This document shows positions 3,491 to 42,567 of a stretch of 64,000 bases of DNA, one piece after another. Below the pieces are notes generated by a model. That model did not search any database. It was not told the origin of the DNA and saw only the letters and a list, made by a program, of their open reading frames with translations. Numbering within the stretch: the stretch's first letter is position 1; the number at the start of each line of letters is the position of its first letter. The DNA is from a virus. The stretch covers positions 1 to 64,000 of IMG/VR virus record IMGVR_UViG_3300030329_006602. One strand, 5' to 3'. A program made the translations under genes and the position numbers.

Positions 3491-4831
3491 TTAAATAAGT
3501 TCCTTTATAGGGGTCGTGTAATCTAAAAGATAGCGAGGGCGACCTGAAGGGTCAATAAGTTGGGTGTCTGCTGGATCAATTCCGCAGTGTTTATAGATGG
3601 TGGCCATTATTTCCTGCACATGTACAGGACGCTCTATTGGCTCTCCCGCTAAATGATCGGTAACTCCTATAACCTGTCCCATTTTCAGTCCCCCGCCTAT
3701 CATAAGAGCGCTTTGCACTTGAGGCCAGTGATCTCTTCCTGCCTTATCATTAACTATGGGGGTGCGCCCAAACTCTCCCCATGCCACCACTAAAACATCT
3801 TTATCTAAACCGCGTTGATAGAGGTCGCTAATCAAGGCCGACAGGGCTAAGTCAAAGGGGGGTAAAATAGCACGCATTTTAGGGTAATTATTATCGTGGG
3901 AATCGAAACCTAGATATCCTCCCCAATTTAACGATACATATCTGGTTCCTGCTTCTACTAGCCTTCGGGCCAAAAGTAACCTCTCGGTTTGTCCTCTCCA
4001 ACGCTCTGGAATTTTATCTACGTAGGGGTTTCTCGTTTTCTGGGGTTCTCTACTGAGGTCCATGGCCTCGGATATTTTTCCCGAAAGAACCATGTTTACC
4101 GACTCTTGGGCATACTGATCAAATAGCTCCATGTTCTGCGAATTATCCCAGTGGCGTTTTATTTTATCTAAACTCCCTAAGAGTCCCACCCGATCATGCA
4201 ACCTTTTCTCAGGAATTGTGGGGTGAAAATTGGCGGGACTAACCTGAGGATTAAAGGGAGCATAACGTGGGCCGAGCCAACCATGCTGCACCTCTTCTTG
4301 GGACCCTCCCGTTTTGTCCCAAACAAAGGCGGGCATCCCATCCCTTCCTCCTAGAATCTTACTAATCACTCCTCCTATAGGAGGAGCTCCACCAATAGCA
4401 CGCATGGCAGGCTTCGGGAGTCCTAATCCTGGATAACCTAATTGTGTGGTGTCATAGTTATGTTTATTAACATTACCAATAACTGTTCGGATGATAGTAA
4501 ATTTGTCTGTGAGTTGAGCTAAATGTGGCAAAAGCTCACAAATATGAGTGCCTGGAACCTTGGTCCGTATGGGTGAAAATTCTCCGCGCAACTCTAGGCT
4601 GGAATTCGGCTTCATATCGAAGGTATCCATTTGGGGAGGGCCCCCTTCTAGATGTAAATTTATTACGGCCTTATAGGAAGGATGCGGGTTGTTTTGTGCA
4701 GCTTGAAGTCGTAGCACATCAGGGGCTGCCAAATTTCCAAATCCTAATCCCAATGCTCCTACTTTAAGGAAATTTCTCCGTGAAATTCCATCACAAAATC
4801 CGTCAATGACGTCTCCCTTTATCGTAAGCAT
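3491..4831 (-). CDS. DUF1501 family protein, Tat-exported
   Basis: CDGISRRNFLKVG twin-arginine; GGPPQMDTFDMKP; LLLARRLVEAG; FDSHDNN; WGEFGRTP..GRDHWP. Confidence 0.92.
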   Translation of the reverse strand: MLTIKGDVIDGFCDGISRRNFLKVGALGLGFGNLAAPDVLRLQAAQNNPHPSYKAVINLHLEGGPPQMDTFDMKPNSSLELRGEFSPIRTKVPGTHICELLPHLAQLTDKFTIIRTVIGNVNKHNYDTTQLGYPGLGLPKPAMRAIGGAPPIGGVISKILGGRDGMPAFVWDKTGGSQEEVQHGWLGPRYAPFNPQVSPANFHPTIPEKRLHDRVGLLGSLDKIKRHWDNSQNMELFDQYAQESVNMVLSGKISEAMDLSREPQKTRNPYVDKIPERWRGQTERLLLARRLVEAGTRYVSLNWGGYLGFDSHDNNYPKMRAILPPFDLALSALISDLYQRGLDKDVLVVAWGEFGRTPIVNDKAGRDHWPQVQSALMIGGGLKMGQVIGVTDHLAGEPIERPVHVQEIMATIYKHCGIDPADTQLIDPSGRPRYLLDYTTPIKELI

Positions 4832-4834
4832 TAA

Positions 4835-5152
4835 TTAACTAAAAGATTTTCCACAGCCGCACGTAGCTTGAGCATTGGGATTCTTAATCTCGAATCCCTT
4901 GCCGCTCAAACCATCATCAAAATCTATTTCTACTCCTCTCAGATAGTCGGTGCTAGATCTCTCTACAAAAAGGGTCACCCCTTGGGACTCGACTTTTACA
5001 TCTTCCTTTTGCGGTACCCCGAACGTCATTTTATATTCGAAACCCGAGCATCCTCCTGGGTCCACAAAAACACGCAATCTCTGAGAAGGATCTTCCCGTT
5101 TTTTTTGGAGTGATTCGACTTGGAGGCCCGCGCGCTGGGTTAAGGTGATCAT
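4835..5152 (-). CDS. iscA: A-type Fe-S cluster carrier (IscA/ErpA/HesB family)
   Basis: GGCSGFEY and NPNAQATCGCGKSF; all three conserved Cys present. Confidence 0.95.
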   Translation of the reverse strand: MITLTQRAGLQVESLQKKREDPSQRLRVFVDPGGCSGFEYKMTFGVPQKEDVKVESQGVTLFVERSSTDYLRGVEIDFDDGLSGKGFEIKNPNAQATCGCGKSFS

Positions 5153-6435
5153 GAAAATAATTCTGTCAGTATTCTTCCTTGATTTAAAATTGGGTGGGGC
5201 CTGCCGCTGTGGTCGTAGTAGTGGTGCTTGATGTTCACTCCCATATGTTCATAGAGTGTGGCTAATACATCGGGAGGAGTAATTCCTACTACGGGTTCAG
5301 ACCCCGTCTTGTCGCTCTCTCCAGCCAGCCTTCCCCCTTTAATTTTTCCTCCTGCAATAGCTGCAGCCATAGAGCGAGACCAGTGATCCCTGCCTGCATT
5401 AGCGTTAATTTTAGGGGTGCGGCCAAATTCTCCCCAAGCAACCACCATCACATCATCTATTAGACCCCGCGCATGAAGGTCAATTATTAAGGCGCTAAAA
5501 GCTTTATCAAACTGGGGTAAATTGTTATTGCCCATAGATTTGTCGCTATTTTGGTGGGTGTCCCATCCAAAAGGAGTTTTAACGGTCACCATTTTCACTC
5601 CATTCTCTACTAAGCGGCGCGCTAATAACAAATCTCTACCAAAACCTGGCCCGTAAAGGTCTTTGGTAAAAGTGGATTCCTTTTCTATATTAAATGCATT
5701 TGCCGCTTTACCGCTGGTCAATAGTCCCTGAGCCTTCAAGTTGAACTCGTCGATGGATTTAACCATTCCCGATTTATCTAATACTTTTCTAAACTTATCA
5801 AAGGACTTCAAAAGATCCCCCCTATTATCCACTCTATTGATGGTGAGCGAGTCATCTAGGGTAAAATTGGTATCTTTATAATCCTCGGTGCTCGAAGGAC
5901 GCTGTTTGGTTTGATAGGGTCCAAATTCATGCCCCAGATAACCTGGGTAGGTTCCCCGAGTATGATTTGGAATAACTACATAAGGAGGAACTTGTGTGTT
6001 GGACTTGGCGTGTTCGGCAATAGTGGCACCAATACTGGGGTAAAAGTTTTGTTGTTGGTTGGGCTCCACAGCCTTATACCCAGAGTTCATTATTTCATGG
6101 GCTGAACTATGGTTGTTATTGGTGTGATGAAGCCCTCTGATAATCGACCATTTGTCCATGCAGTCGGCACAATTTACTAAGTGTTCGGGGAGCTGAATTC
6201 CATTCACATTAGTAGAGATAGCTTTAAAGTGTCCTTTGTAGGGTTGGGGGGCATCGGGTTTCGGGTCAAAAGTTTCATGGTGGGAGGGGCCACCGTTCAT
6301 CCATACTATAATTACCGCTTTCTTATTATTTAATGTCTTCGCTTTTGCTTGTAGTTCAATAAGTTGCGGGAGGCTTAAGGAGGTTAGTCCTCCTATGGCC
6401 CCAACCTTAATAAAGGATCGTCGCGAGGTGTTCAT
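5149..6435 (-). CDS. DUF1501 family protein, Tat-exported (second paralog)
   Basis: SRRSFIKVG; GGPSHHETFDPKP; LLLARRLVENGV; WDTHQN; WGEFGRTPKINANAGRDHW. Confidence 0.92.
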   Translation of the reverse strand: MNTSRRSFIKVGAIGGLTSLSLPQLIELQAKAKTLNNKKAVIIVWMNGGPSHHETFDPKPDAPQPYKGHFKAISTNVNGIQLPEHLVNCADCMDKWSIIRGLHHTNNNHSSAHEIMNSGYKAVEPNQQQNFYPSIGATIAEHAKSNTQVPPYVVIPNHTRGTYPGYLGHEFGPYQTKQRPSSTEDYKDTNFTLDDSLTINRVDNRGDLLKSFDKFRKVLDKSGMVKSIDEFNLKAQGLLTSGKAANAFNIEKESTFTKDLYGPGFGRDLLLARRLVENGVKMVTVKTPFGWDTHQNSDKSMGNNNLPQFDKAFSALIIDLHARGLIDDVMVVAWGEFGRTPKINANAGRDHWSRSMAAAIAGGKIKGGRLAGESDKTGSEPVVGITPPDVLATLYEHMGVNIKHHYYDHSGRPHPILNQGRILTELFS

Positions 6436-7477: not shown

Positions 7478-7687
7478 CTAATTTGTTTTTTCAAATTTAT
7501 TATCGCCGATATACCTAATCGCTTGTATAAATTCCTCTCCCAGCATGGATTCTTTGGGGGAAAATCTACTCAGGTGTTTTCTTGTTGGGTTAAAGTCGTG
7601 CGCCCGTTTATATATGTAATATATTTGCCCAACGACAAAGAGTCCTTGTGCTTGCACGCCGCTTAGGTCCACCTCTTCTTGACTCAT
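7478..7687 (-). CDS. Hypothetical protein
   Basis: Likely start MSQEE in ATGA overlap with the QueF-like stop. Confidence 0.55.
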   Translation of the reverse strand: MSQEEVDLSGVQAQGLFVVGQIYYIYKRAHDFNPTRKHLSRFSPKESMLGEEFIQAIRYIGDNKFEKTN

Positions 7688-8109
7688 ACCACTATCGACC
7701 ACTCATCATGAGGGTCGGACCAATCTTTATATTTTTCTTCTCCACCCCTTACGGACCAATCGGAATCGATGGCGAGTTTAGAGGAGATTCCCCCTCGTGG
7801 ATTGAAAATCATCACGAGCCTCAGCCTGTCGGGCTTATATGTTTTCATTAAATCCGCATAGAAAATATTAATTAAGCGTTCATATGATACCACGATATCC
7901 CGCAGGTGAAAGACGTAATGCTTTAAACTTTTGAGTTCAATAACCTTGTCCTCTGGATAGAAACTCAAGTACGCATTAGCAAAGTCGGGCTGCTCTTTTA
8001 CCCCCAAGAAAGTGAACTCTGGGATTTTTATTTTAATCTCATACGCTTCCTTTGATGGATTGGGTATGGATTTAAGAATAGAACTATTAATATCTGTATA
8101 GGTTTTCAT
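7684..8109 (-). CDS. QueF-family T-fold protein lacking the catalytic cysteine
   Basis: PEFTFLG..QPDFA, QueF motif ELKSLKHY, FNPRGGIS; no Cys anywhere in the protein. Confidence 0.85.
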   Translation of the reverse strand: MKTYTDINSSILKSIPNPSKEAYEIKIKIPEFTFLGVKEQPDFANAYLSFYPEDKVIELKSLKHYVFHLRDIVVSYERLINIFYADLMKTYKPDRLRLVMIFNPRGGISSKLAIDSDWSVRGGEEKYKDWSDPHDEWSIVV

Positions 8110-9122
8110 TAAAAATCGTCTTCGAGCGCGCCGCCCTGTTGGTACTCACGCACTCTACGCTCGAAAAAATTACCCATAGCTTGTACGTCAACTACTTCAC
8201 CTAGCCAAGGAAAAGGATTCTCATCACTGGGAAAACGAAAATCCAATCCGATTCCCTCTAGTCTCCTGTTGCCGATGAAGTGCATATAATCTACAAACAT
8301 ATCGGCGTTAAGACCTAAAATACCTGTAGGAAGAACATCATTGGCGTAATTTATTTCCAACTCGACGGCCTTCTTCATGTGTTCAATAAACTCTCCTTGA
8401 ATTGTCTTGGTCCAAATTGTGGGATTCTGTTCTATGATCGTGTTTATAAGATAAGTGCCGAAAGCAATATGGCTACTCTCGTCTCGCAACGTGTATTTTA
8501 TTTGATCGGAAATGCCCTGAAGTTTATTTTGTCTACCCAAGGCGAGGAGCATGGCGAATCCACTAAAGAAAAAGGTTCCCTCGCATACTATATAATAAGA
8601 GAGGAGGTTTCTTAAGATTTCTTGCTTGCCTGCTTTTGTCGAGGGGTTGAAGTCTTGCCTGCTAATATCCGAGGTAATCTCCATGAGGAAATCATCTTTA
8701 GCTTTGATGCTAGGTATTGTTTCGTAGGCATTAAATACTTCTTCGATATCCAGATCCAAACTGTCGCAAATATATACAACGGTAAGGTTATGAAGGCTTT
8801 CTTCAAAAGCTTGGCGCAAAATATACTGACGACATTCCCCATCCGTAACAAATCTAAAAGCAGAAATAAGAAGGTTATTGCCAACCAGAGACTCGCTTCC
8901 TGCAAAAAACCCGAGGCATCGCTTGACGAGGAGTTTTTCGTCGTCGGTGATTTCATTGTTTTTCCATTGTTTTATATCGTGCTGCATGGAAATCTCTGTG
9001 GGCATCCAATTGTTGGCGCAGCTTTTAAGAAATAATTCCCAAGCATACTTGTGCTTGTGCGGAAGTATTCTATTGACTCCTGCCACGTCGGCGCCTAAGA
9101 GTTCTCCAGTTTTATCTTTCAT
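8109..9122 (-). CDS. nrdB: Ribonucleotide reductase beta subunit, class Ic (R2c)-type
   Basis: WMPTEI; AGSESLVGNN; QAFEESLHNLTV; EGTFFFSGF; RDESSH; NFFERRVREY. Confidence 0.95.
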   Translation of the reverse strand: MKDKTGELLGADVAGVNRILPHKHKYAWELFLKSCANNWMPTEISMQHDIKQWKNNEITDDEKLLVKRCLGFFAGSESLVGNNLLISAFRFVTDGECRQYILRQAFEESLHNLTVVYICDSLDLDIEEVFNAYETIPSIKAKDDFLMEITSDISRQDFNPSTKAGKQEILRNLLSYYIVCEGTFFFSGFAMLLALGRQNKLQGISDQIKYTLRDESSHIAFGTYLINTIIEQNPTIWTKTIQGEFIEHMKKAVELEINYANDVLPTGILGLNADMFVDYMHFIGNRRLEGIGLDFRFPSDENPFPWLGEVVDVQAMGNFFERRVREYQQGGALEDDF

Positions 9123-9131
9123 AGTAAACCT

Positions 9132-9160
9132 ACTATAGCATATATTCTATTGAATGTCAA
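9132..9160 (-). promoter_or_regulatory. sigma70 promoter of nrdB-queF-like
   Basis: TTGACA-17 nt-TATAGT, 9 nt before ATG. Confidence 0.75.
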
Positions 9161-9163
9161 GTA

Positions 9164-11608
9164 TTATTGGCAGGATTCACAAGTTTCTCCGCGCGCCATT
9201 GCATCTATACTGCATTCCGTTGGCTCGCTAGAGCTTTCTTGCGTGGTAGCTTTTTCCACTTTGGTGGCTGCGCGATTTCGAAGATAATAGGTGGTTTTTA
9301 AACCGTATTCCCAACAGGCCATATATATGTCATTAAGATATTTGAGTGAAGTGGTTTTGTTGTATAGGTTAAAACTGATAGATTGGTCCATCCATTTCTG
9401 TCTCACCGCATTCGCTTCAATAAGTTTTAGCATATCTCTGTCGAAGGCAGTTTTGTATTTACTTTTAAGGTCATCTGGAATTGACCCGTTAAGAAGTCTA
9501 AGGTCCCCATCCGCTTGCTTGATTAAGGTTGCAATTTCAGGTCCCCATAGACCCCTGTTTTTCATGTCATTGACAAAATGTTCATTTACAATAAAGAAGT
9601 TTCCGCTTTTATTCTCATAAACAAACAGTACGGAAAAATTTGGTTCAATGCTTTGTTCTACTCCGTTGATGTATCCTATAGTTGCGGTGGGTGCAATCGC
9701 CATTACATTAGAGTTTCGCATCCCATCTTTAAGTATGTGGTTTCTCAGTTGGTCCCATTTTTCTTTTGTAAGTTGGCTATATTTGCTTTTGACGCTGTAA
9801 TCGTGCGAAATTTCCCTATACTCCATTAAGTCCTTATGGGAATCCACGGGAAGCTTACCTTGAGACCATAGGGATCCTTCATATGTTTCGTATGACCCTC
9901 GTTCTTGTGCCAGTTGGTTGCTTGCTTGGATGGCGTGGAAGGAGTAAAATTCAAACAAGCCATCACTAAAAGAGACGGCCTCATCGCTGTCTATTTTAAT
10001 GTCAAGGGTATGTAATACGTCGTGCAGACCCATTAACCCTAATCCTATTGGGCGATTTTTGAGATTTGAATTCTTGGCCTCGGGGGTGGGATAAAAATTA
10101 AGGTCTATAACGTTGTCCAGCATTCGGATGGCGGTATGGATAGTTTGCGCCAGCTTTTTATAGTCTATACCGTTTTTCTTTTCGGTTAGGTGATGAAATA
10201 GGTTGACTGACCCCAGGTTGCATACAGCTGTTTCTCCCACCTTAGTTTTTTGTCCATGTTGGTATTGTGAGGCTTTGGTGTGGAGGGTTATTTCTGTACA
10301 TAAGTTAGAGCTATGTACGACTCCTTCGTGTTGATTGGTGTATCGAATGTTGCATGGATCCTTAAAGGTATTCCATGGATGAGAGGTCTCAAATAGAACT
10401 TTGAGCATTTTTTTCCATAATTCCTTGGCTGAAATCTTGCGGAAGTTTTTTATCTCTCCTTGTTCGGCCAGCTTGCAGTATTTTTTATACTTTCTGTCGA
10501 ATTTTTTCCCAAATAAATCATGGAGGTCAGCACACTCTTTGGGGTCAAACAAGTACCACTCTTCATCCTTTTGAGCGGCCCGCATGAAAGCATCGGGTAT
10601 CCATGAGGCCGTATTTAAGTCATGACATCTTAAGCGATCATCTCCAGTGTTGCGTCGTAAGTTTAAAAACTCTTCGTAGTCTAAATGCCACGGCTCTAGA
10701 TAGGCGCAGCCAGCTCCTGGCCGCTTGCCCCCTTGATTCACCGCAACTAAAAGATCATTATATATCTTGAGCCATGGAATAAGTCCACTAGAAATGCCAT
10801 TGGTTCCTTGGATGTGGGACCCTGTAGATCTAAAAGGTGTTACATCAAGACCGAGCCCTCCTGCATATTTGGATTTGCGCGCTTCCTGCCAAGCTCCATC
10901 AAAAATTCCATCTATAGAGTCATCGAAGGTATTAAGATAGCAGGAGCTTAATTGTGAGTGGGCCGTCCCGCTATTAAAGAGGGTGGGGGTAGAGGATGTA
11001 TAAAGAAGGCGGCTAATAAGATTATAAAACTCCACAGCCTTTTCCTCTTTATTTTCCTCGTTAATTGAAAGCCCCATGGCAACCCGCATCCAAAAACCTT
11101 GAGGAGATTCCATGATCTTGTCATGCTCTCTGATGAAATAACGATCATACAGAATTTGAATGCCGAGATACTTGAATTTTTTATCTCTTTCTACCTGAAT
11201 TGCGTCGGCTAGGTATTTTAAATCAAACGTGAGGAGTTTTGGGTTGAGTCGCTCTGACTTTACTAACTTTTTAATGTTTTGAACAAAGCTTTTTTTATAT
11301 TGTAGCTCAAAGACATCGCTGTCTACCCCCTCCCTGAATACTTCTTTGTATAAATTATTAAGAACAAGCCTCGCAGCCGCCAGCGAGTAATTCGGCTCCT
11401 TCTCTATCTTCTCTCTCGCCGAGAGTACTAGGGCTTGGTCTATTTGGGCGCTGGGGATCTTGTCGTAAAGCTGTAGTTGTGCATCTAGTACAATTTCACT
11501 GGCTGAAACATTTTCTATTCCCTGGCAGGCCCTTTCTGCGCTGGCGTTAATTTTTCCTACTATAAATTCCTCTAGTCGTCCGTTCCTCTTTTTTACGTGA
11601 ATCTCCAT
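9164..11608 (-). CDS. nrdA: Ribonucleotide reductase class I alpha subunit with ATP cone
   Basis: VKKRNG ATP cone; TPTLFNSG; QLSSCYL; SNLCTEI; VCNLGS; APTA; LKTTYYLR; C-terminal CESCQ. Confidence 0.97.
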   Translation of the reverse strand: MEIHVKKRNGRLEEFIVGKINASAERACQGIENVSASEIVLDAQLQLYDKIPSAQIDQALVLSAREKIEKEPNYSLAAARLVLNNLYKEVFREGVDSDVFELQYKKSFVQNIKKLVKSERLNPKLLTFDLKYLADAIQVERDKKFKYLGIQILYDRYFIREHDKIMESPQGFWMRVAMGLSINEENKEEKAVEFYNLISRLLYTSSTPTLFNSGTAHSQLSSCYLNTFDDSIDGIFDGAWQEARKSKYAGGLGLDVTPFRSTGSHIQGTNGISSGLIPWLKIYNDLLVAVNQGGKRPGAGCAYLEPWHLDYEEFLNLRRNTGDDRLRCHDLNTASWIPDAFMRAAQKDEEWYLFDPKECADLHDLFGKKFDRKYKKYCKLAEQGEIKNFRKISAKELWKKMLKVLFETSHPWNTFKDPCNIRYTNQHEGVVHSSNLCTEITLHTKASQYQHGQKTKVGETAVCNLGSVNLFHHLTEKKNGIDYKKLAQTIHTAIRMLDNVIDLNFYPTPEAKNSNLKNRPIGLGLMGLHDVLHTLDIKIDSDEAVSFSDGLFEFYSFHAIQASNQLAQERGSYETYEGSLWSQGKLPVDSHKDLMEYREISHDYSVKSKYSQLTKEKWDQLRNHILKDGMRNSNVMAIAPTATIGYINGVEQSIEPNFSVLFVYENKSGNFFIVNEHFVNDMKNRGLWGPEIATLIKQADGDLRLLNGSIPDDLKSKYKTAFDRDMLKLIEANAVRQKWMDQSISFNLYNKTTSLKYLNDIYMACWEYGLKTTYYLRNRAATKVEKATTQESSSEPTECSIDAMARGETCESCQ

Positions 11609-18012: not shown

Positions 18013-18416
<404 letters not shown>

Positions 18417-39551: not shown

Positions 39552-39985
39552 TTATTCTGGGATATCTCGGGGTTTTGTTTTAGGGTCTGGATAGTAATAA
39601 GATCTTTTAGGCGCGTTGTAGACCATTCGTGAGATCGAGTGGTGTAGATTACCTTTGGGGGTAAATCATCCCCAGTGAAACTCCTTCCTATGTAGTCTTC
39701 TCCTAAGATTCTTATGTCGGGCTTCCAGAATTTAATGAGATTAATTAATTCCTCTTCTGTTTGGTACATATATACGTCGTCAATGTATCTGATCGCCATT
39801 AGAGTCTTGTATCGTTCGTAATAGGGAATTACGGGCTTGTATTTAGTATATCTTGTTTCCGACGGGTCTCGTTGTAAAAATACAAAGAATTTGTCGCAGT
39901 GGCGCTTGGCCTCTTCAAAGGTATAAATGTAGCCTGGGTGAAGTAAGTCAAAGTTTCCAGCCGTGAAGCCAATTGTTTCTTTCAT
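39548..39985 (-). CDS. Cytidylyltransferase-family nucleotidyltransferase (TagD/HldC-like)
   Basis: GNFDLLHPGY; GEDY; RSHEWSTT. Confidence 0.85.
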   Translation of the reverse strand: MKETIGFTAGNFDLLHPGYIYTFEEAKRHCDKFFVFLQRDPSETRYTKYKPVIPYYERYKTLMAIRYIDDVYMYQTEEELINLIKFWKPDIRILGEDYIGRSFTGDDLPPKVIYTTRSHEWSTTRLKDLITIQTLKQNPEISQNK

Positions 39986-42567
39986 AAATTATTAATTGTG
40001 AAGTCCTCATATTGTAAGTCTTTGATGTTAATAAACTCAATACCGCTATCAATTAAGTCTTTATTGTGTTTTTTAATTTCGTCAGCAAAGTTCCATGCTA
40101 ATATAATCACCTTCATATTGGTTCCATTAATTTCAGTTTTAGGTTTAATTGGGATATTTGTTCCTGGCACAATTTTATTATGTTTTAATTTATTGTCCTC
40201 AACAATAAAGTCAATATCATTGACTGTTATACCGTAATAATTTAAAGCTGTTGTTGCCTTAGCTGGTGAAGCATAACCAATTAATGTGTTACCTTCGTCT
40301 TTAAGTCGTTTGATATTTTTAATTACATTGGCTTTACAATCTTGAACTCTTTTACCAAAGTCTTTATATGTCTGATACTCTGTTAACCCAAATTCTTCTT
40401 CATTTATTAGGAAAGTGTTAACATTTTCTGTGGACACCACTCTATGATGATTGCCAACATAAACACGAATTGAACCTCCATGAGTATCAATATGTTCGAC
40501 ATCATATACCTTAACACCTAAACTATCAAGGAATCGAACTATCGATGTTACTGACCAATAGTTAACGTGTTCATGATAAATGTTATCAAACGTCAAATCC
40601 TTAATAGTGTCTAATAAATATTGAACCTCAATCACAAATGTTCCTGTGTCTTTTAATAGTTTAAACACATTTTTTGTGATACCTTTTAAGTCATCTGCGT
40701 GTGCAAATACATTAGAAGCAGTTACTAAATCGGCAGTACCATCTAGCCCTTTAAATGTATTTTCATCAAAGTAGCTGTTAATTGTTGGGATTCCATTATC
40801 AGTAGCTATTTCTGATACATTAGTGGCGGGTTCTACTCCGATTACCTTAATGCCTTTATCCTGCAATGGCTTTAAAGCAATTCCATCATTTGAACCTATA
40901 TCTACAACTAATGATTTTTCATCTAGTTTGAATTTGTCTATATACTTGGTGGCGGCATCTTCAAAATGTTTTCTAAATGATGACGAAGTAGATGAGACAT
41001 ATAGATAGTTGTCAAACATTTTACCTGGAGGAACTACATAGCTTAGTTGAGAGTTATGACACTCGGAACAATAATCCATTTCTAGTGGGAACTTCTCAAA
41101 AGAATCGTCTTTGAAGTCTAATAAGTTGTTGGCCATTGGTGACTTACCTAATGATATAACTTTCTTCATATGAATGTTACCACAACACCTGCATTCCGTT
41201 TTGTATCCATCAATAAGTTGTTTCCTGAAATCCTCATCAACAAGTATATCCCTAATTGTGTGTGTGATTCCATAATTCTCATGTTCTCTTTCGCCCCTAA
41301 CAAGGTTTAAGAAAATAGAATCTTCTAAGAATACCATTGCATGTGAAACATTAGGCCTTATAACTGCAATGTCACCCTCTTTTATCAATCTGGTTTCGAT
41401 AACCGAATTTGGGTCAGCTAAATCTTTAACAACGCTAATATATTTACCTTTAATCAGTAGACATTTTTGCTCTTGTATGGGATGGTAATGATTCGCTCTA
41501 ACTGTACCCTCTTTGGACTCAATATAACCAATTAAATTAATCGGTTCAGTTAATTCAAAATTAGATATTTTACCCCTCTCATCAATATATTCTTTGCCTC
41601 CTCTAATTATGTATTCCAAATCTTCTGGTTCTTCTTTGCGGGACCAATTAGTAATCATTTCTTCAATGCACCCTTTAAGGTCGTACCTAAATTCAAAACC
41701 AGTGTCTAGTAATTTTTTATTTGATATTGTATAGCCTAAGTTTGGTATTTCATCATCCGTTTCCTTAATTTTTAATTTTGGATTTATTTTCTTACAGATA
41801 TCTGCAACTTCTTTAACGGTCGTATTCTCTTTTGACAAATGAAAAATTTCATTATTTATGCCGCTTTCGGCCATAAATTTAAAGCATCTTGCAACGTCAA
41901 CGAGGGGCACTAAACTTTTCAGTTGTATCCCCCCAGAAAATAATTTTATTGTGCCGTCTTGGGAGGCTATTTTTGAAAAAAGATTTGGCATGATCCCTGT
42001 GCGCATGGTGTCGGTTGAGTAGCCGTAAACAGATGCCAGCCTTAGTATAACGTAATTATTGCCAGAATTTTGCAAATCTTTTTCAGATTGTACTTTTCCA
42101 GATGAATAAGTTAGGACAGGGCACGGGGGCACGTCTTCTGCTAGGTTGGTTTTGGTCTCCTTAAATCCTTCATAGACCACATGGGTGGACGGGAAGAGGA
42201 TTTTTGAATTTTTATTAGCGTACTTAATAATATTTTTAGTGCCCTGAACTCCAGTACGTGTTATGGCTTGATCCTTTTCGGTATCCGCATCTGTTGCGGT
42301 ATATGCGACGTCAGTTATGCCAGCTAAATGTATGATGATATCAGCTTGGGCGAGTTCTTGTTTTAGGATGTCTTCTTCTAATATTGAAGATTCTATAAAT
42401 CTAATGCCCCAGTCTCTTAATTGCTTAACTCTTTCAGAAATAAATCTAGAATCTATTACAACAATATCTTTATATCTAGCTTCGCCCGAGTACAATTTAC
42501 ACAACTCCGTTCCAACGTAACCCAGGCCACCAGTGATGACAATTTTTTGTATTGTATTGTTTTTCAT
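39982..42567 (-). CDS. Trifunctional fusion: NAD-dependent epimerase/reductase + cupin + NDP-sugar C-methyltransferase
   Basis: TGGLGYVG and YSSGK; DERG..RANHYH cupin; CRCC..CSEC Zn site, DIGSNDG, NVFAH, IYHEH, HGGSIR, LAWNF. Confidence 0.88.
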   Translation of the reverse strand: MKNNTIQKIVITGGLGYVGTELCKLYSGEARYKDIVVIDSRFISERVKQLRDWGIRFIESSILEEDILKQELAQADIIIHLAGITDVAYTATDADTEKDQAITRTGVQGTKNIIKYANKNSKILFPSTHVVYEGFKETKTNLAEDVPPCPVLTYSSGKVQSEKDLQNSGNNYVILRLASVYGYSTDTMRTGIMPNLFSKIASQDGTIKLFSGGIQLKSLVPLVDVARCFKFMAESGINNEIFHLSKENTTVKEVADICKKINPKLKIKETDDEIPNLGYTISNKKLLDTGFEFRYDLKGCIEEMITNWSRKEEPEDLEYIIRGGKEYIDERGKISNFELTEPINLIGYIESKEGTVRANHYHPIQEQKCLLIKGKYISVVKDLADPNSVIETRLIKEGDIAVIRPNVSHAMVFLEDSIFLNLVRGEREHENYGITHTIRDILVDEDFRKQLIDGYKTECRCCGNIHMKKVISLGKSPMANNLLDFKDDSFEKFPLEMDYCSECHNSQLSYVVPPGKMFDNYLYVSSTSSSFRKHFEDAATKYIDKFKLDEKSLVVDIGSNDGIALKPLQDKGIKVIGVEPATNVSEIATDNGIPTINSYFDENTFKGLDGTADLVTASNVFAHADDLKGITKNVFKLLKDTGTFVIEVQYLLDTIKDLTFDNIYHEHVNYWSVTSIVRFLDSLGVKVYDVEHIDTHGGSIRVYVGNHHRVVSTENVNTFLINEEEFGLTEYQTYKDFGKRVQDCKANVIKNIKRLKDEGNTLIGYASPAKATTALNYYGITVNDIDFIVEDNKLKHNKIVPGTNIPIKPKTEINGTNMKVIILAWNFADEIKKHNKDLIDSGIEFINIKDLQYEDFTINNL

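Follow-up and report, generated by a model that had tools for sequence, protein, structure and literature searches.

The window, the whole 64,000-nucleotide stretch of DNA that was analysed, encodes a 141-residue, cysteine-free protein of the QueF fold (the QueF-like protein). This protein is probably a 5,10-methylene-THF reductase that uses NADPH and no flavin, carried by a phage for methionine and SAM supply. It has lost the catalytic cysteine of QueF and kept the NADPH-binding motif; cellular relatives lie in methionine operons, some of them under SAM or cobalamin riboswitches, and their distribution is complementary to that of MetF. The window belongs to a 76-kb IMG/VR record that is classed viral and ∼53% complete, and its source was accepted as a large phage. 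Features around the gene are collected in Table 1; genomes and loci are numbered with the prefixes G and L.

Table 1. Features surrounding the cysteine-free QueF-like gene (positions in the window)
Feature	Position	Strand	Remarks
Cysteine-free QueF-fold (T-fold) gene, 141 aa	7684..8109	-	candidate NADPH-dependent 5,10-methylene-THF reductase; E-x-T-F-L-G / S-Y-E clade
TAATG stop/start overlap, nrdB / QueF-like gene	8107..8111	-	CATTA on the plus strand
nrdB, class I RNR small subunit	8109..9122	-	PF00268, E 3.3e-75; NF005550, 455 bits
nrdA, class I RNR large subunit with ATP-cone	9164..11608	-	profile matches
Sigma-70-like promoter match, nrdA-nrdB spacer	9132..9160	-	11/12, extended -10; consensus match only
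74-aa ORF	7478..7702	-	overlaps 3′ end of the QueF-like gene by 19 nt

The QueF-like protein contains no cysteine. Its motifs are EFTFLGV at residues 31-37, D42 within QPDFA, ELKSLKHY at 58-65, S75-Y76-E77 and P104-R-G-G-I108; the earlier note had read the cysteine-free protein, the QueF motif, D42, E77, PRGGI and EFTFLGV correctly. QueF (PF14489, E 3.7e-17) was the sole Pfam family matched, and the Pfam scan gave no homology to the TIM-barrel MTHFR family PF02219. Against the NCBIfam model TIGR03139 (QueF-II) the protein scored 87.7 bits, just above the cut-off of 86.9, so annotation pipelines would call it a preQ1 synthase.

The gene lies immediately downstream of nrdB and is translationally coupled to it; the TAATG junction that had been described was confirmed as an overlapping stop and start at the bases concerned. 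A promoter shared by the two genes had also been claimed. The candidate site reads TTGACA-17-TATAGT with an upstream TG and is near consensus, total site counts were not above those of shuffled controls, and the only terminator-like match between this site and the QueF-like gene (8244-8215) falls inside nrdB; a shared promoter is thus plausible on the DNA sequence, and the claim was kept at that grade. The 74-aa ORF that follows gave no Pfam or PHROG match. In viral loci L063 (40% identity) and L069 the QueF-like gene is followed directly by a homologue of this ORF. The NrdB protein reads EESLHNLTV, with valine four positions past the histidine ligand, at the place of the radical tyrosine of class Ia enzymes, which suggests a tyrosyl-radical-free, class Ic-like R2.

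Homologues were collected with a word-indexed search of 5.8 billion proteins, which gave 2193 matches, and by running phmmer exhaustively against 1.84 billion cluster representatives, which gave 1171. The exact motif EFTFLGV was found in 109 of the best 120 of the 2193 matches (71-97% identical), and the catalytic cysteine in none of these 120. The upper part of the phmmer list consisted almost entirely of proteins with E-x-T-F-[LI]-G followed by Q-P-D-F, and the canonical EFTSLCP started only lower down. Residues G36, D42, E58, Y76-E77 and R105-G-G were common to dozens of 50%-identity clusters. Across 64 diverse aligned members E31, G36, Q40, D42, L59, K63, P93 and R105-G106-G107 were invariant, and F34, E58, K60, S61, Y65, R70, S75, Y76, E77 and R78 were at least 90% conserved. 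The earlier note had named cysteine-bearing close homologues as the finding that would speak for isolated decay or a sequencing error. To judge from these alignments the absence of cysteine is a family trait and not decay, and its loss is fixed.

The cysteine-free proteins form a large sister family of QueF that is mainly cellular. A full-text literature search found no description of the clade, and a term search of a 2026 QueF review turned up nothing on it. Among cultured and GenBank phages only canonical, cysteine-bearing relatives of QueF were found, at below 46% identity.

Aligned by profile with B. subtilis QueF (4F8B), the protein has G36 at Cys55, D42 at Asp62, E58 at Glu78 and Y76-E77 at His96-Glu97; R105-G-G aligned with the P-R-G-G loop, and the cysteine loop was one residue shorter. 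An AlphaFold (AF2) model built on the 64-member alignment had a pLDDT of 89.5. Its best match in the PDB was B. subtilis QueF (TM 0.74-0.79, rmsd 1.3 Å over 111 residues), followed by V. cholerae QueF, FolE and QueF-L. On the strength of the model the protein is assigned to the T-fold superfamily, in the QueF/FolE branch. Compared with the published definition of QueF (PMC5372742), it has the equivalents of Asp62 and Glu97 and the QueF NADPH motif, E(S/L)K(S/A)hK(L/Y)(Y/F/W), matched by E58-L-K-S-L-K-H-Y65, and lacks the catalytic Cys55.

With unimodular QueF (YkvM type, EC 1.7.1.13; 4F8B, 4FGC, 5UDG) the protein shares the T-fold, with ∼36% core identity, the NADPH motif, the counterparts of Asp62 (D42), Glu78 (E58) and Glu97 (E77) and the P-R-G-G-I loop. 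It differs from B. subtilis QueF in Cys55 to Gly, Ser54 to Phe, Pro56 to Val, Phe95 to Ser, His96 to Tyr, Asp98 to Arg and Ile130 to Ser, and in a C-terminal tail of 25-30 residues. The pyrimidinone edge of preQ0 is contacted by Glu97, Glu78 and the backbone of Val77, Ser79 and His96, according to a 2026 review (PMC13740343). These contacts are retained in the clade, whereas the nitrile-side residues Cys55, Ser54, Pro56, Phe95, Ile130 and Asp98 are replaced by other residues that are themselves conserved. This pattern of substitution indicates a pocket that was rebuilt rather than one that is dead.

Two other T-fold enzymes were compared. QueF-L, the archaeosine amidinotransferase of Crenarchaeota (5JYX, 5K0P), is likewise a neofunctionalised QueF fold and a weak structural match; it keeps the cysteine and has lost the NADPH motif, the opposite of the pattern seen here. 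GTP cyclohydrolase I (FolE) shares the T-fold and a pterin/purine pocket with the QueF-like protein, and the phage family is labelled 'GTP cyclohydrolase' in PHROGs, but the QueF-like protein has neither zinc ligands nor cyclohydrolase motifs, has the NADPH motif and is only 13-16% identical to FolE.

The contexts and regulation of the clade, unlike those of QueF, belong to methionine, folate and dNTP metabolism and not to queuosine. A split metH flanks the gene in Cyclobacteriaceae, Marinoscillum and Flavobacteriales, with the half for the Hcy-methyltransferase (metH-N) on one side and the half for the pterin, B12 and activation domains (metH-C) on the other. The gene lies beside metE in three Bacillota/Bacteroidales MAGs (directly after it in L021 and L055), in one of which (L006) it overlaps the stop of nrdD; it follows thyX in Syntrophorhabdaceae and is followed by metK-ahcY in five viral contigs. 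Scans with Rfam located a SAM riboswitch ahead of metH-N/QueF-like/metH-C in L003 and L005, and a cobalamin riboswitch ahead of metE-QueF-like in L055 and of nrdD-QueF-like in L006. In L021 a cobalamin riboswitch is followed by two unscanned ORFs (713 and 238 aa) and then by metE-QueF-like. No preQ1 riboswitch was found in the loci scanned with Rfam, and Q genes were never seen beside the QueF-like gene in the loci scanned. The methionine operons and the SAM and cobalamin riboswitches place the gene in methionine/B12 regulons, not in a queuosine regulon. Positions 4967-10473 of L006 hold tandem units with two cobalamin riboswitches, the first with nrdD and the QueF-like gene and the second with metE.

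Carriers of the gene were then compared with the distribution of MetF (PF02219). A match to MetF was absent from 30 of 50 carrier genomes and present in the other 20. The MetF-less carriers include closed chromosomes, from Cyclobacteriaceae, a Marinoscillum MAG and Kangiellaceae; in three Kangiellaceae carriers, two of which are closed chromosomes, MetH is full-length and MetF absent. Both cultured carriers in the 50-genome set (Marinoscillum) retain MetF.

Counts were made with HMMs on species representatives, with species drawn evenly per order. A phylum-wide sample of Bacteroidota held 3 carriers in 301 genomes, too few to test, and samples were therefore taken at the level of the order. 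By Fisher tests, which ignore shared ancestry among carriers that fall in a handful of clades, MetF was present in 3/21 carriers versus 94/100 non-carriers in Flavobacteriales (121 genomes; p 1.2e-13), in 0/7 versus 122/144 in Cytophagales (151 genomes; p 5e-6) and in 3/28 versus 216/244 when the two orders were pooled (p 1.4e-17). Expressed as absence, the pooled figures are 25/28 carriers and 28/244 non-carriers.

Methionine synthase was absent from 16 of 22 MetF-less non-carriers tested, and these 16 would have no need of MetF. Six genomes have MetH with neither MetF nor a match to the clade at E ≤ 1e-25, so the absence of MetF has other explanations too. A search with the clade profile gave no QueF-family match in five of these six MetH-positive, MetF-negative non-carriers. 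The five (G353, G382, G396, G527 and G528, from Cytophagales and Flavobacteriales) have either assembly gaps or another unrecognised methylene-THF reductase.

Three states of the same operon were found. A closed Cytophagales genome (G395) has metH-N/metH-C/metF, Marinoscillum has metH-N/QueF-like/metH-C/metF, and Cyclobacteriaceae and Flavobacteriales MAGs (L003, L004) have metH-N/QueF-like/metH-C with no metF genome-wide. Such a series is a classic signature of non-orthologous displacement. The direct genome-level count of carriers against MetF, together with this three-state series, is new here.

The earlier note had suggested an NADPH-dependent purine or pterin enzyme. The pterin half of this suggestion fits and can be narrowed to folate one-carbon metabolism. 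Substrate and chemistry we infer as follows. The QueF fold would have been neofunctionalised: it would retain the T-fold pocket for recognising a 2-amino-4-oxo-pyrimidine ring (through E77, E58 and the backbone), D42 as proton donor and the NADPH-binding motif (E58-L-K-S-L-K-x-Y, R105-G-G), and would have given up the thioimide cysteine. Reduced pterins share their 2-amino-4-oxo edge with 7-deazaguanine, their N8-H is the counterpart of N9-H, and pterin N5 is topologically equivalent to C7 of 7-deazaguanine. Because of this equivalence, ring-opened 5,10-methylene-THF would bring its N5-iminium carbon to the position that the nitrile/imine carbon of preQ0 takes, where it would face the nicotinamide. 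Transfer of one hydride from NADPH to the iminium carbon, with D42 as the acid, would give 5-methyl-THF. A covalent tether would not be needed for this reduction, which fits the loss of the cysteine. A place for the C6 side chain and its carboxylates could be provided by the enlarged pocket (Phe95 to Ser, Cys55 to Gly, Ile130 to Ser) together with Arg78, which is new and conserved.

In bacteria the product, 5-methyl-THF, would feed MetH or MetE, and the protein would be a functional analogue of MetF. FAD-dependent MetF (PF02219) has the reaction and role proposed here, 5-methyl-THF for MetH or MetE, and occurs in the same operons; it is a β/α-8 barrel unrelated to the T-fold, and the QueF-like protein has no flavin site. 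By analogy with the flavin-independent Mfr of mycobacteria, the hydride would pass directly from NAD(P)H.

Several observations count against a methylene-THF reductase. Carriers with both genes, and the metF that shares an operon with the QueF-like gene in Marinoscillum, mean that the two are not strictly exclusive. Cobalamin-riboswitch control also occurs in MAGs of MetF-positive anaerobes (Bacillota/Bacteroidales), for which simple redundancy is no explanation. The thyX, nrdD and nrdB contexts are not specifically accounted for and fit a broader folate role, and a T-fold pocket would take purines as readily as pterins.

Part of this evidence suits an NADPH-dependent reductase with a different folate or pterin as substrate, in support of THF-dependent enzymes generally. 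The substrate could be 5,10-methenyl-THF or 5-formyl-THF, possibly taken in two steps to the methyl level in an echo of the two hydrides of QueF. Folate breakdown could also supply it as a dihydropterin aldehyde, and a folate that has been oxidised and needs repair is a further candidate. Conservation of the pocket and of the NADPH motif applies equally to such an enzyme. The range of neighbours (thyX, nrdD, nrdB, metH, metE) has folate and dNTPs as its theme rather than methionine alone, and MetF and the QueF-like gene occur together in two fifths of the carriers. These activities would, however, leave the loss of MetF with retention of MetH in carriers unexplained, and a direct route to 5-methyl-THF, which would explain it, merges with the methylene-THF reductase proposed above. 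A stand-in for DHFR was rejected, as FolA was present in 4/5 carriers tested. A reductase of this broader kind is considered unlikely.

A non-catalytic binder is less likely still. Such a protein could serve as a T-fold subunit with a regulatory or chaperoning role for folates or pterins, or, as the earlier note had proposed for host queuosine or deazaguanine-based defence, a 7-deazaguanine decoy or dominant-negative QueF subunit. The catalytic cysteine is gone while the base-recognition residues are kept, QueF active sites form between subunits, so that mixed oligomers are conceivable, and in the phage no other Q genes and no folate genes accompany the gene. Across the clade, however, the proton-donor aspartate, R-G-G and the NADPH motif stay invariant or nearly so, and would be superfluous for mere binding. 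The clade-specific changes S54F, P56V, F95S, H96Y and D98R (B. subtilis numbering) are likewise conserved, and most members are chromosomal genes in methionine operons under SAM or B12 riboswitches. A decoy in particular would find no canonical QueF to poison in G001, G002, G004 and G005, and that proposal is not supported.

Reduction of preQ0 to preQ1, or another step of queuosine salvage, would agree with the score just over the TIGR03139 cut-off and with four carriers (G001, G002, G004, G005) in which the QueF-like gene is the sole QueF-family gene and QueA is present (G004 also has QueC), but it is highly improbable, for the protein has no cysteine anywhere, E. coli QueF loses its activity on preQ0 when the Cys is changed to Ala or the Asp to Asn (PMC13740343), QueC is absent from G001, G002 and G005, G003 (Kangiellaceae) also has a canonical bimodular QueF, the scanned loci hold neither Q-gene neighbours nor a preQ1 riboswitch, and a 2017 census explicitly set aside sequences without Cys55 as 'non-QueF' (PMC5372742). 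A normal nitrile reductase is very unlikely, as had been argued from the single protein. The Cyclobacteriaceae and Marinoscillum chromosomes G001, G002 and G005 each have two QueA paralogues (∼350 and ∼410-460 aa) and neither QueC nor a canonical QueF, a gene set that implies salvage of preQ1 or queuine.

Searches of the 76-kb record, about half a genome, gave no match to TGT/DpdA or QueC, in line with the absence of Q-pathway genes that had been reported for the window. Within the window no cobalamin or SAM riboswitch was found, the sole Rfam match being a tmRNA. The neighbourhood of the QueF-like gene includes a divergent DnaB-like helicase, a primase, a PD-(D/E)XK nuclease, a NUDIX protein, nrdA, nrdB, a RecA-like protein, PhoH, Hsp20 and the tmRNA.

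In a phylogenetic tree the phage protein and seven IMG/VR sequences formed a well-supported clade (98/95), nested among Flavobacteriales, Cytophagales and Kangiellaceae sequences in a group that was itself supported (95/90). Deeper in the tree, another viral clade grouped with Zixibacteria and Bdellovibrionota. No nrdAB genes were found within 6 kb of the gene in the seven closest viral relatives (0/7) or within 8 kb in the cellular loci (0/54), and a functional partnership with ribonucleotide reductase was rejected. The single coupling to nrdD (L006) sits in a cobalamin-riboswitch unit adjoining metE. More functional weight had been put on the coupling to nrdB than it can bear. Given that the closest viral relatives have no nrdAB nearby, the coupling looks like operon packaging or co-regulation.

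If the protein is a methylene-THF reductase, we infer that in the phage its gene would be expressed along with nrdAB and would serve as an auxiliary metabolic gene that sustains regeneration of methionine and SAM during infection. Further along the window lies a glycan cluster with unusual glycosyltransferase families, sulfotransferases and at least four SAM-dependent methyltransferases, and the flow from methyl-THF through methionine to SAM could serve this heavy methyltransferase load.

More tentatively, the clade may represent a third, structurally unrelated class of MTHFR, a flavin-free T-fold enzyme of ∼140 aa that uses NADPH directly, has displaced MetF in entire lineages of marine Bacteroidota and Kangiellaceae, and has been captured by phages at least twice as a methionine/SAM auxiliary gene, here wired into an nrdAB operon. 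If this holds, 5-methyl-THF would be made by a wholly different fold in many marine Bacteroidota, in Kangiellaceae and in some phages, and the gap left by a missing MetF in metabolic reconstructions of abundant uncultured flavobacteria would be filled. A systematic misannotation as preQ1 synthase would be corrected, the T-fold repertoire would gain a small, cofactor-simple reductase, and methyl-folate supply would join metK and ahcY among phage auxiliary genes.

Further features of the window were recorded. The glycan-biosynthesis cluster extends over ∼22000-60200 (minus strand), is very large and has a counterpart in L079. It encodes nucleotide-sugar epimerases and dehydratases, glycosyltransferases of the eukaryote-type families GT11, GT6, GT17, GT61 and GT47, two sulfotransferases and a TylF-like O-methyltransferase, as well as an epimerase/C-methyltransferase fusion at 39982-42567. 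The tmRNA (18015-18416, minus strand; RF00023, 122.6 bits) lies within the replication module, and its tag peptide, as given by ARAGORN, is unusually long and basic and ends in LALAA. Two DUF1501 proteins are encoded in 3491-6435 (minus strand), of which at least the one at 5149-6435 has a Tat-like N-terminus (RRSFIK). The phage also encodes an Fe-S assembly protein of the IscA/HesB type (4835-5152).
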